In this document: piece after piece, positions 4,858-7,262 of the stretch
Numbering within the stretch: the first letter of the stretch is position 1
Layout of the letters: each line of letters opens with the position of its first letter
Assembly: GCA_964407265.1 (NCBI GenBank)
Contig: CAYOUV010000011.1
Coordinates: forward strand, 800-64,799
DNA: 64,000 nt
Direction: 5' to 3'
Source of the DNA: an uncultured Anaerolineaceae bacterium
GTDB lineage: Bacteria; Chloroflexota; Anaerolineae; Anaerolineales; Villigracilaceae
Made by a program: the position numbers and the translations under genes
Notes under the pieces: model-generated
The model's input: the letters and a program-made list of their open reading frames with translations, nothing else
Told to the model about the DNA's origin: nothing
Database searches by the model: none

Positions 4858-6102
4858 CTACTTCTCGAGAGCGCCTTGATTGATCCAATCCGCGATTTGG
4901 GACAGTTCATCGGGGGCCAGCTGGCCGAAGTGGCCGCCAGCAGCCTGGATCTGGTACAGCTTGCTGTTGGCCGAATCGCCGGGTACGATGACTGGCCCAT
5001 CCTGCCCGCCTTGCATAGCGTCGGCATAGGTGGTCAGGTTCAGGCCACCCGAGACCAGGTTGGCATTATGGCAAGTTAAGCATTTCTGGGCGAAGAGCGG
5101 TCCGGCGTATCCGTCCCAGGTGAGGCTAGGAGCGCTGGGTCCGCTGGTAGCTGCCTCGCCGCCCGGGGTTGGGGTGGCAGCTGGCGTTTGGGTCGGAACC
5201 GGAGTGGCTGTGGGCGGCAGAGTCGGCAGTGGCGTAGGCGTCTCTGGCGCATAAACTGTGACTTGGATTGGCGCTGGCGGAATAGTCTTGATCGAGGACT
5301 GCTCGCCGTTGACGAAGCCGTATACACCTCCCAGCATGACGATCGCCAGTACGCCCGCAATTGGATAATAGACCATCTGGCGTTTGCGTAGCACGGATGG
5401 GGCGACCGGACGCTCGGCAATGCCGGCCTTGATGTCGGCCAGTTCGAGCGGGTGCTCTTCCAGCATCTCTTCCTCGGAGACCTTCCCGGTCCACATCGCT
5501 TTGTTAAAACGTTTGAGATGCACAGCGTACATGTGCCAGATGATAATGGCCAGCACTGCCAGGATAGCTTCGGCGCCGTGGGCGGCCTTGGCTGCCGGGA
5601 TAATCTCACCAGGCAGAAGTTTGACCGTGGTGATCGGGTTCCACATGGCGAAACCGGTCAGGCCCATGATGACCGTACCCCAGACCAGCGACCAGTATTC
5701 CATTTTTTCTTCGAAGGTATAGCGTCCCATCTGGGGGCGCGTTTTGGAAAGCCCAAAATTGTACATCAGGGCTTTCCAGCCGTCCTTGACATCCTGCAGA
5801 CCGGGCAGGATCGGGATACCCTTCCTCAAAACAAAGAAGTGGTATCCCGCGAACAGGATATGCCAGATGGCGACCAGCATCAGCACGGTTGCGGCGGAAT
5901 GATGGATCAAGCGTGTATTATCGATACCGCCCAACAGACGGATGATGGCAATCGATACGCCGCCGGTGGGGAATTTTTGCGGTAAACCGGTAAAAGCCAG
6001 TGTTGTGAAGGAAAGCAGCATCGCCAGGTGCTCGATCCGTGTGGGGAGCGAAAAGCGCGTGTAATTGCGGTGTTTCTTTGGAGCAGAGGTTGTCTTGGCC
6101 AT
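4858..6102 (-). CDS. FdnI/HydC-type membrane dihaem cytochrome b with a fifth TM helix and a C-terminal monohaem c domain
   Basis: RFSLPTRIEHLAMLLSFTTLAFTGLPQKF plus His-bearing helices (IHHSAATVLMLVAIWH, HGAEAILAVLAIIIWHMYAVH). PT-rich linker, then CLTCH and a ...WINQGA tail. Confidence 0.8.
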   Translation of the reverse strand: MAKTTSAPKKHRNYTRFSLPTRIEHLAMLLSFTTLAFTGLPQKFPTGGVSIAIIRLLGGIDNTRLIHHSAATVLMLVAIWHILFAGYHFFVLRKGIPILPGLQDVKDGWKALMYNFGLSKTRPQMGRYTFEEKMEYWSLVWGTVIMGLTGFAMWNPITTVKLLPGEIIPAAKAAHGAEAILAVLAIIIWHMYAVHLKRFNKAMWTGKVSEEEMLEEHPLELADIKAGIAERPVAPSVLRKRQMVYYPIAGVLAIVMLGGVYGFVNGEQSSIKTIPPAPIQVTVYAPETPTPLPTLPPTATPVPTQTPAATPTPGGEAATSGPSAPSLTWDGYAGPLFAQKCLTCHNANLVSGGLNLTTYADAMQGGQDGPVIVPGDSANSKLYQIQAAGGHFGQLAPDELSQIADWINQGALEK

Positions 6103-7262
6103 TAGTGTTTTGCTCCTTTCCGGCGTTCGATCAGGCGTCGGATAATGTCTGAGATTACATAGACCAGCATGCCGCCCAAAACGGTTGGGATCATAACCTT
6201 GTAGAACAGGTTGACGAAATAGACAATTGGGTGCTGCTCAGGGCTGGGAATGTAGTGTCCCAGCCAGGCATCCGGGAAGCTGGCGGTCGCGTCAGGGTGG
6301 CAGCGCTGGCATTTCACCAGCAGGTTTTGTTTAATCGCGATGCCCGTTTTAGGATCATTTACATTGGTAATATCGTGTACGCCGTGACAGTCGGTGCAGA
6401 CAGCTTTGTTGGTAAAGGTATTCGGGGAAGTCTCTTCGAACAAGGTCACGGTCGTACCGTGGAAATCGGAAACGTAAGTATTGAGCACCTGGGTGGATAT
6501 GCCGTACTTGGACATGATGGCATTGTTGGTATGGCACTTGGCGCACAGCAATGGTGTGTCATTGCGGAATTGAGCCGTGGTCGGGTCCTGGATGTTGTGC
6601 ACGCCGTGGCAGTCGATGCAGGTCGGCACGTCAGTGTTGCCTTCCTGGGTCAGGGCTGCGCCATGCACGCTGTTTTTGTAGGTGATATAGATGGTGCTGT
6701 GGCAGCGGGCGCAGGTCTGCGGGATTTGCAGACGCGCACTGGGCAGGAGAGCGCCCGTGGCAGGATCGGTGAGGCGGGTCTGGGTGTGCGGGTTGTGGCA
6801 GTCGGTGCAGACAGCCGCATTTTTATTGCCGCCAGCCAATGCCTTCTGATGGACACTGTCCAGCACCTTGTCGTATTGCTCGATATGGCATTGTTTGCAG
6901 GTGGTGTAGAAGGTGGTGGCCACGTCACGCAGCGTGTTGGCCTTCAATTCCGGGTGTGGGAAAGTTTTGATGTTCGTGTGGCATTGCACGCAGGTGATGT
7001 TGTTCTCGGCGTGGACCGAAGCCGCGAAGTGGGTCGAATCGATCGTAAGGTAAAGAACCTCGCCACTGGGCAGGGTTTTGGTCATGCCCGGTTTTCCATG
7101 ACAGTACAGGCAGTCCTCATTGGTTGGTCCGGAGGTTTGCGGTTGTTGCGGTGCTGCATTGGCAGACATGCTGAACCCGGCGATGATCAATACCAGCAAG
7201 CCCAGGACGATGCCAATGGTTCGCATGCGCTGCTTCCGAAATGTGGTCAGTAAATTGCTCAT
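6102..7262 (-). CDS. Nonahaem cytochrome c with signal peptide and C-terminal TM anchor
   Basis: Nine CxxCH: CLYCH, CVQCH, CKQCH, CTDCH, CARCH, CIDCH, CAKCH, CTDCH, CQRCH. The stop overlaps the downstream start (TAATG). Confidence 0.85.
   Translation of the reverse strand: MSNLLTTFRKQRMRTIGIVLGLLVLIIAGFSMSANAAPQQPQTSGPTNEDCLYCHGKPGMTKTLPSGEVLYLTIDSTHFAASVHAENNITCVQCHTNIKTFPHPELKANTLRDVATTFYTTCKQCHIEQYDKVLDSVHQKALAGGNKNAAVCTDCHNPHTQTRLTDPATGALLPSARLQIPQTCARCHSTIYITYKNSVHGAALTQEGNTDVPTCIDCHGVHNIQDPTTAQFRNDTPLLCAKCHTNNAIMSKYGISTQVLNTYVSDFHGTTVTLFEETSPNTFTNKAVCTDCHGVHDITNVNDPKTGIAIKQNLLVKCQRCHPDATASFPDAWLGHYIPSPEQHPIVYFVNLFYKVMIPTVLGGMLVYVISDIIRRLIERRKGAKH

Follow-up and report, generated by a model that had tools for sequence, protein, structure and literature searches.

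The c9–b Gene Pair

The window analyzed here is a 64,000-nucleotide stretch of contig CAYOUV010000011.1 (assembly GCA_964407265.1) from an uncultured Anaerolineaceae bacterium (Chloroflexota; Anaerolineales; GTDB family Villigracilaceae), and it carries on the minus strand two overlapping open reading frames (ORFs) whose products are probably the subunits of a quinone-linked membrane complex related to CbcL of Geobacter sulfurreducens. The first of these ORFs, here named c9 (6102–7262, minus strand, 386 amino acids), encodes a nonahaem c-type cytochrome that is a homologue of CbcL's N-terminal c domain, and the second, here named b (4858–6102, minus strand, 414 amino acids), encodes a dihaem cytochrome b of the FdnI/HydC type that continues through a fifth membrane helix and a linker to a one-haem c domain. 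An earlier reading of the same letters (the original prediction) had described a nine-CxxCH protein with a signal peptide and a C-terminal transmembrane helix, a stop codon overlapping the start of a cytochrome b with FdnI/HydC signatures, and an extra c-haem on that b subunit, and each part of this description was recovered by the motif scans, hydropathy profiles, domain matches, and structural models set out below.

A motif scan of c9 places the first cysteines of its CxxCH haem-binding motifs at residues 51, 91, 122, 152, 184, 215, 240, 289, and 318, and the same scan found no haem motif of another kind in the protein; nine CxxCH motifs within 386 residues are far beyond chance. The N-terminus is a predicted Sec-type signal peptide (7155–7262, minus strand; residues 1–36) with a basic N-terminal region and a hydrophobic stretch at residues 16–34, and cleavage probably takes place after SANA (SANA/AP), where Ala36 is unchanged across 50 homologues. 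At the other end of the protein, hydropathy and the AlphaFold model agree on a membrane helix (6120–6230, minus strand; residues 345–381 in the model), which is followed by a basic tail. The model as a whole has a predicted local distance difference test score (pLDDT) of 76; it is haem-free and an unsafe basis for judging haem packing. Solved structures searched with the c9 sequence gave marginal matches only, and Foldseek found nothing significant for the c9 model, the template modelling scores (TM-scores) being at most 0.31 under either normalization.

More can be learned from the histidines. In an alignment of 23 sequences, made up of 20 Chloroflexota c9–b pairs and three CbcL orthologues, the nine CxxCH motifs are invariant, as are the distal-type histidines at positions 84, 138, 159, 200, 222, 268, 296, and 336 of c9, and His103 is present in 20/20 of the Chloroflexota sequences. 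Because the nine motifs and these further histidines are conserved, every c9 haem can be bis-histidine (bis-His) ligated, with no sign of an open catalytic haem.

The b subunit begins with a four-helix dihaem domain (5485–6057, minus strand; residues 16–206) that matches the Pfam family Ni_hydr_CYTB (PF01292) at 56 bits against a cut-off of 30.1. The fifth membrane helix (5308–5400, minus strand; residues 235–265), called from hydropathy and modelled at a pLDDT of about 90, corresponds to the last helix of CbcL and returns the chain to the outside; this helix, together with the positive-inside pattern, places the c domain outside the membrane. Between the two lies a Pro/Thr-rich linker (5134–5298, minus strand; residues 269–323) that is predicted to be flexible, with pLDDT below 50 at residues 269–294 and 298–323. 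The one-haem c domain itself (4879–5118, minus strand) is of the PSCyt1 type (PF07635 over residues 341–384, 37.3 bits against a cut-off of 22), carries its single haem motif, CLTCH, at residue 341, and is modelled at a pLDDT of 80–90. The AlphaFold model of the entire b subunit (pLDDT 76.6) has helices at residues 19–43, 60–92, 130–154, 167–197, and 235–265 and a folded c domain at 329–408. Cys341, Cys344, His345, and His391 are invariant across 49 homologues, and from this conservation His391 is the likely sixth ligand of the PSCyt1 haem.

Among solved structures b has a single clear relative by sequence, Escherichia coli FdnI (1kqf_C, E 1.6e-8), which is also the first Foldseek match of the b model (E 3.3e-6, TM-score 0.79 normalized by target length, root-mean-square deviation 3.6 Å), followed by hydrogenase-1 cytochrome b. 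Histidines 18, 57, 155, and 169 of FdnI, which are its haem ligands in the published structure (Jormakka et al. 2002), align with His25, His67, His175, and His190 of b, respectively. All four are invariant in the 23 aligned sequences, so that a loss of these b-haem ligands, an outcome that would have counted against the original prediction, did not occur. We propose that His25 and His190 hold the cytoplasmic-side haem and that His67 and His175 hold the outer haem. A conserved RYTFEEK motif stands at the start of helix 3. As an FdnI equivalog (the formate dehydrogenase gamma model TIGR01583) b was rejected, with 54.1 bits against a cut-off of 115.85 and with cytochromes rather than FdnGH as neighbors.

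The two genes meet in a compact junction (6100–6119, minus strand), which reads AAAGGAGCAAAACACTAATGG. An AAGGAG ribosome-binding site (6113–6118) lies within the end of c9, its GGAG 10 nt upstream of the b ATG, and the stop of c9 and the start of b overlap as TAATG (6100–6104), with the TAA (6104–6102) and the ATG (6102–6100) having one base in common while the frames differ. Junctions of the form GGAG followed by TAATG or ATGA are also found in relatives from the same family. Such an overlap with an internal ribosome-binding site would keep the production of c9 and b in step. A frameshift or an assembly artefact was considered as the source of the two-gene arrangement and rejected, since the pair is conserved in every relative examined.

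Homology to CbcL

CbcL (GSU0274, Cbc1) of G. sulfurreducens is an experimentally supported menaquinol oxidase on which respiration with extracellular acceptors of low potential depends, and two of its residues, V205 and F525, have been linked to redox gating. The comparison with c9–b was made in three Geobacter genomes reached via their PpcA-encoding loci, which belong to near relatives of G. sulfurreducens (best PpcA match 92% identical) and not to G. sulfurreducens itself; the CbcL orthologue in each was recognized by its architecture and by the published V205/F525 positions. In 3/3 of these genomes the best c9 match (E 3e-24 to 6e-26, query residues 74–382) adjoins the best b match (E ~1e-15, query residues 7–218) within one frame of 618–619 amino acids, which has a signal peptide, nine CxxCH motifs, a b domain, six hydrophobic helices, Val205, and Phe525, and which on these features is taken to be the CbcL orthologue. 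The c9 match scores 85–91 bits over residues 74–382 and is the top match in each Geobacter genome by more than 10 orders of magnitude.

When c9 and b are joined, they give a single colinear alignment with CbcL, 553 columns long (26% identity, E 7.4e-54), that spans both the junction and the anchor helix. Taken separately, residues 74–382 of c9 align with CbcL residues 43–322 (26.5% identity over 313 columns, E 2.7e-33) and residues 8–216 of b with CbcL residues 337–560 (E 1.7e-16). The reverse search, with CbcL against the genome of the window, returned only c9 and b, plus one weak match at E 1e-4. By hydropathy the six membrane helices map one to one, the anchor of c9 corresponding to CbcL helix 1 and helices 1–5 of b to CbcL helices 2–6. 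At the cytoplasmic start of helix 3, b and CbcL have in common an R(Y/W)T(F/Y)xEK motif in the place where FdnI has its quinone-site KYNAGQK, and the helix-4 histidines are spaced by 15 residues in b and CbcL versus 14 in FdnI.

The kinship with CbcL that had been put forward as a possibility in the original prediction has thus gained support from several directions, namely reciprocal best matches, matches that adjoin within one ORF, a colinear alignment, and conserved haem motifs and histidines, and at the level of sequence these show c9–b to be a homologue of CbcL within the CbcL/MtoC/MtrH family. Both systems have nine colinear CxxCH motifs with conserved distal histidines, an FdnI-type dihaem b domain, and six helices in the same order. 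They differ in that CbcL is one polypeptide whereas c9–b is two, the second of which goes on beyond its last helix into a linker and a PSCyt1 domain that CbcL lacks, and in their hosts, Geobacter in the one case and an Anaerolineales bacterium in the other.

Two other known systems invite comparison. CbcBA (GSU0593/0594) of Geobacter, a quinol oxidase that works near the thermodynamic limit and has dedicated regulation, also consists of two genes for a multihaem c subunit with a C-terminal anchor helix and a dihaem b subunit; the CbcBA paper reports both the anchoring of CbcA by its C-terminal helix and the lack of sequence homology between CbcB and the b domain of CbcL. Unlike c9–b, however, it has a b subunit of another family and only seven haems on CbcA. 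A relationship of b to CbcB was rejected: at E <0.01 the three Geobacter genomes contain no second cytochrome b matching b, and CbcL alone was matched. E. coli FdnH/FdnI (PDB 1KQF) resembles c9–b in the fold of the b subunit, in the four histidine ligands, and in having a partner whose C-terminal helix anchors it alongside the four-helix bundle, but the partner is an Fe-S protein rather than a multihaem cytochrome, a catalytic subunit is present, and KYNAGQK stands where b has RYTFEEK.

Distribution and Evolution of Split and Fused Forms

A 2018 survey of the CbcL/MtoC/MtrH family comprised only fused proteins, of 416–1034 amino acids with 3–23 haems, and listed no member in Chloroflexi. The single polypeptide common to all members of that survey is replaced by two ORFs in c9–b. 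Two-gene CbcL homologues are nevertheless not a new idea, having been described before in Carboxydocella thermautotrophica (CFE_2192-2193 and others), where one gene specifies a dihaem b and the other a multihaem c with a single membrane helix; the same genome encodes an ImcH homologue (PMC6085454). By their description these clusters are like c9–b in their split b and c genes and in the accompanying ImcH homologue; they differ in belonging to Firmicutes and in that no terminal c domain on b is mentioned. Our literature search found no paper linking CbcL to Anaerolineae.

Among 8000 candidates scored, 5888 database clusters matched c9 at E <=0.001, and the best 120 of these encode proteins of 358–415 amino acids that are 62–97% identical, the named ones coming from Anaerolineales. 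The corresponding search with b matched 4017 database clusters, the best 120 spanning 385–717 amino acids because one to several c-type domains come after the fifth helix. In an even sample of the window's phylum, 37/401 genomes contain a c9 homologue (E <=1e-10), a figure that reaches 17/24 within the window's own family.

In all 20 Chloroflexota loci examined, the c9 gene is followed directly by a separate b gene. Across these loci the c subunit has 9, 11, or 14 haems and the b subunit 0, 1, or 6 c haems. The tail of b is a variable add-on in relatives, some b subunits having 237–283 amino acids and no c-type domain and others 581–589 amino acids and three domain families, and one relative has a b with six CxxCH motifs (L124:4629-6044, G341). 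Tandem c9–b pairs also occur in some genomes (L118 in G058, L130 in G160, and G357:C47).

Split pairs are common outside Chloroflexota as well. In a sample of the Geobacter phylum, 92/301 genomes have matches at E <=1e-15, many of which are split pairs; in Desulfobacterota the c subunits of such pairs have 9, 11, or 13 haems and the b subunits 250–315 amino acids, and some of these c subunits, at 40–45% identity, stand nearer to the window's c9 than CbcL does. Two Desulfobacterota loci (L146 in G687 and L147 in G600) have a fused 11-haem c–b protein beside split pairs in tandem.

A maximum-likelihood tree of 38 b domains, which has no outgroup root, resolves two well-supported clades (99/98). 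The first contains Desulfobacterota only, and within it CbcL and a second fused form are each nested among split forms; the second contains all Chloroflexota pairs, including that of the window, together with five Desulfobacterota split pairs. The best other PF01292 proteins of the window's genome have the length and histidine pattern of short CybB-like b561 proteins and are too distant to serve as an outgroup. By parsimony on this unrooted tree, the split state would be the older one and fusion would have happened at least twice, such that CbcL looks like a fused derivative of a mostly split family. The label "split CbcL", close to that of the original prediction, therefore describes the architecture well, with the c and b domains on two ORFs, but misstates the history, in which the fused protein looks derived.

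It follows that surveys seeking fused CbcL alone miss most of the family, and the analysis supplies a tested annotation for thousands of clusters from uncultured Anaerolineales that are labelled "nitrate/TMAO reductase-like tetrahaem cytochrome" or "formate dehydrogenase gamma". The principle of a quinol-linked b subunit joined to a multihaem c subunit is established, and its split form had already been reported, so the gain lies in annotation and evolution and not in mechanism.

Genomic Context

The c9–b pair is flanked by other cytochrome genes. Downstream of b, profile matches identify a bc complex (1001–4301, minus strand) made up of a Rieske protein, cytochrome b6, and subunit IV, to which seven one-haem c domains are joined by fusion; a bc complex also adjoins c9–b in two relatives (L114 and L125). 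Beyond it, cut by the edge of the window, lies the 5′ part (1–982, minus strand) of a gene for a NapC/NirT-like ImcH homologue of 565 amino acids (whole gene G000:C11:84-1781, locus L131). At E 6e-83 and 38% identity it matches a Geobacter ORF whose product has seven haem motifs and crosses the membrane with three helices. The homologue here has one membrane helix instead of three, plus an added C-terminal PSCyt1 domain (PF07635, residues 494–535). A PSCyt1 domain ends b, the ImcH homologue (G000:C11:87-341), and subunit IV (1001–1282) alike, and the copy in b shares 52% identity with the copy in the ImcH homologue and 38% with the one in subunit IV. A fourth, weak copy of the domain lies on contig C88.

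Upstream of c9 is a gene for a hexahaem lipoprotein cytochrome (7596–8672, minus strand) with six CxxCH motifs, an LAAC lipobox, and a (GPA)n spacer after the lipobox cysteine, and this protein matches the MtrC/MtrF-type domain II/IV family PF22113 at 35 bits against a cut-off of 30. It is followed on the plus strand by genes that Pfam identifies as a HisKA_3 histidine kinase and a NarL/LuxR-type response regulator (8800–11056). A HisKA_3 kinase and a NarL-type regulator also stand beside c9–b pairs elsewhere in Chloroflexota and in Desulfobacterota (L111, L116, L119, L120, L122, L126–L128, L130, L136–L138, L143, and L144), which suggests that module and regulator travel together from one phylum to another. 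The Desulfobacterota kinase of L136 has dCache and HAMP domains by Pfam, and several of these kinases contain CxxCH.

Signals on either side of the pair bear on its transcription. Directly after the b stop is an intrinsic terminator hairpin (4805–4847, minus strand) with a 17-bp stem, a folding energy of −21.8 kcal/mol, a z score of −7.0, and a U run at its end; it was confirmed by folding, while the pattern scan, limited to loops of 3–8 nt, omits it for its 9-nt loop. A promoter-like site (7290–7317, minus strand), reading TAGGCA, 16 nt, and TG-TAAAAT, is situated 28 nt upstream of the c9 start; it is a weak candidate from a consensus scan that found 6 such sites where 3.5 were expected. With a hairpin after b and this weak site before c9, the pair may be a two-gene transcript of its own. 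Co-transcription with the upstream hexahaem gene is possible.

The wider genome is modest in multihaem cytochromes. It has only 12 ORFs with at least three CxxCH motifs, this cluster accounting for four of the top six; it encodes two haem-copper oxidases, and no NrfA was found. That is what one would expect of a facultative aerobe, not of a cytochrome-rich metal reducer.

Proposed Electron Flow Through a Probable c9–b Complex

From the homology, the architecture, and the conservation of the ligands and of the gene pair, we infer complex formation, a quinone site, a direction of flow, partners, and a physiological acceptor; the probable outcome is that c9 and b assemble as the subunits of a CbcL/MtoC/MtrH-type membrane complex, for which quinol oxidation is the most likely direction. 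The b subunit would exchange electrons with the membrane quinone pool, quinol being oxidized at b, at a site that is probably near the cytoplasmic-side haem (His25/His190) and beside the RYTFEEK motif. Electrons would traverse the membrane via the two b haems and then pass to the nine bis-His haems of c9 outside it; the C-terminal helix of c9 would attach this subunit to b, by analogy to FdnH on FdnI. The tethered one-haem domain of b (ligands probably His345/His391) may serve as a mobile exit, from which electrons could reach the hexahaem lipoprotein or some other partner on the outside; alternatively, the c9 haems could pass them directly to outer cytochromes. It is possible that the hexahaem lipoprotein is the acceptor of the c9–b module. 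The most likely physiological role would be quinol oxidation with a low-yield exit of electrons to extracytoplasmic acceptors under oxygen limitation. The quinol-oxidation reading is favored because CbcL is a menaquinol oxidase and because genes for an ImcH homologue, a bc complex, and a lipoprotein cytochrome bearing an MtrC-type domain lie alongside the pair. If it holds, abundant Anaerolineales of sludge and sediments would seem to have quinone-pool exits of the Geobacter type.

Several observations weigh against this assignment. The identity of c9 and b to CbcL is only 26–31%, and the redox-gating residues are not kept, V205 being replaced by Gln258 of c9 and F525 by Ala185 of b, so redox gating is not to be assumed for c9–b. 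The b-domain tree has the window's pair in the sister clade, outside the CbcL orthologues, and on that placement c9–b is a CbcL homologue rather than a strict orthologue, despite the reciprocal best match. The hexahaem lipoprotein is only loosely syntenic with c9–b in relatives, and a genome that encodes two haem-copper oxidases, has just 12 ORFs of at least three CxxCH motifs, and lacks any very large cytochrome is unlike that of a dedicated metal reducer.

The family also offers no sure guide to direction. MtoC and MtrH belong to the same family, the 2018 survey found no sequence feature telling quinol oxidases from quinone reductases, and MtoC is proposed to run in reverse. Electrons might accordingly flow inward through c9–b, from an outer donor such as Fe(II), reduced humics, or a partner cell, to reduce quinone, as has been proposed for MtoC; FdnI, the closest solved fold, is itself a quinone reductase, and the two haem-copper oxidases of the genome could take the downhill branch. 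We regard this as unlikely, given that the neighbors are a homologue of the quinol-oxidizing ImcH and a bc complex and that bis-His, low-potential haems suit an exit chain. No markers of Fe(II) oxidation turned up in the window, although no search aimed at them was made.

Very improbable, in our judgment, is a role of the pair as membrane anchor and wire for a soluble catalytic enzyme encoded elsewhere, in the way that FdnH and FdnI serve FdnG. The FdnI fold of b and the FdnH-like C-terminal anchor helix of c9 would fit such a role, and the genome does contain four molybdopterin enzymes, but a catalytic gene stands next to the pair in 0/20 Chloroflexota and 0/12 Desulfobacterota loci, the TIGR01583 score of b (54 bits) is far from its cut-off (116), and all nine c9 haems have a conserved distal histidine, with no open catalytic haem evident.

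The remaining alternative, that c9 is an NrfB, DmsE/MtrA, or HAO-associated cytochrome and b merely its neighbor, was refuted by profile scores far below the curated cut-offs of 166–595 bits, by Foldseek matches of c9 that are weak (HAO at E 6e-3, MtrA at E 6e-2) and do not exceed a TM-score of 0.31, and by the far better match to CbcL. The sub-threshold profile matches on which it could draw are to DmsE (TIGR03508, 52.8 bits against 192), to the GSU2203 decahaem family (47.8 bits), and to NrfB and c552 models; among the NrfB, DmsE-MtrA decahaem, and NrfA models, further scores against cut-offs are NF008659 33/184, PF22678 20.7/27, and NF008339 25.5/595, and the NrfA and ExtKL models likewise fall far short of their cut-offs on c9. 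A better fit to an NrfB-type or HAO-associated family, which the original prediction had named as the finding that would overturn it, was thus not seen.

If c9–b is a quinol-oxidizing complex, its surroundings allow a broader, rather doubtful proposal: the CbcL-type pair, the ImcH homologue, and the bc complex may form a hub in which the PSCyt1 domain common to them acts as a plug that passes electrons from these three quinol oxidases, each tuned differently, to a single outer acceptor chain. Were this the case, the hub would be a Chloroflexota solution to the potential-dependent branching for which Geobacter uses separate ImcH, CbcL, and CbcBA.

Two further regions of the genome touch on quinone-linked and molybdopterin-dependent metabolism. 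One (G000:C5:37012-47715) contains an octahaem ORF, a weak PF01292-like ORF, a molybdopterin-family protein, and two trihaem ORFs, and may encode another quinone-linked complex. The other (G000:C18:30847-32163) is a molybdopterin enzyme ORF with one in-frame TGA and is possibly a selenocysteine formate dehydrogenase.

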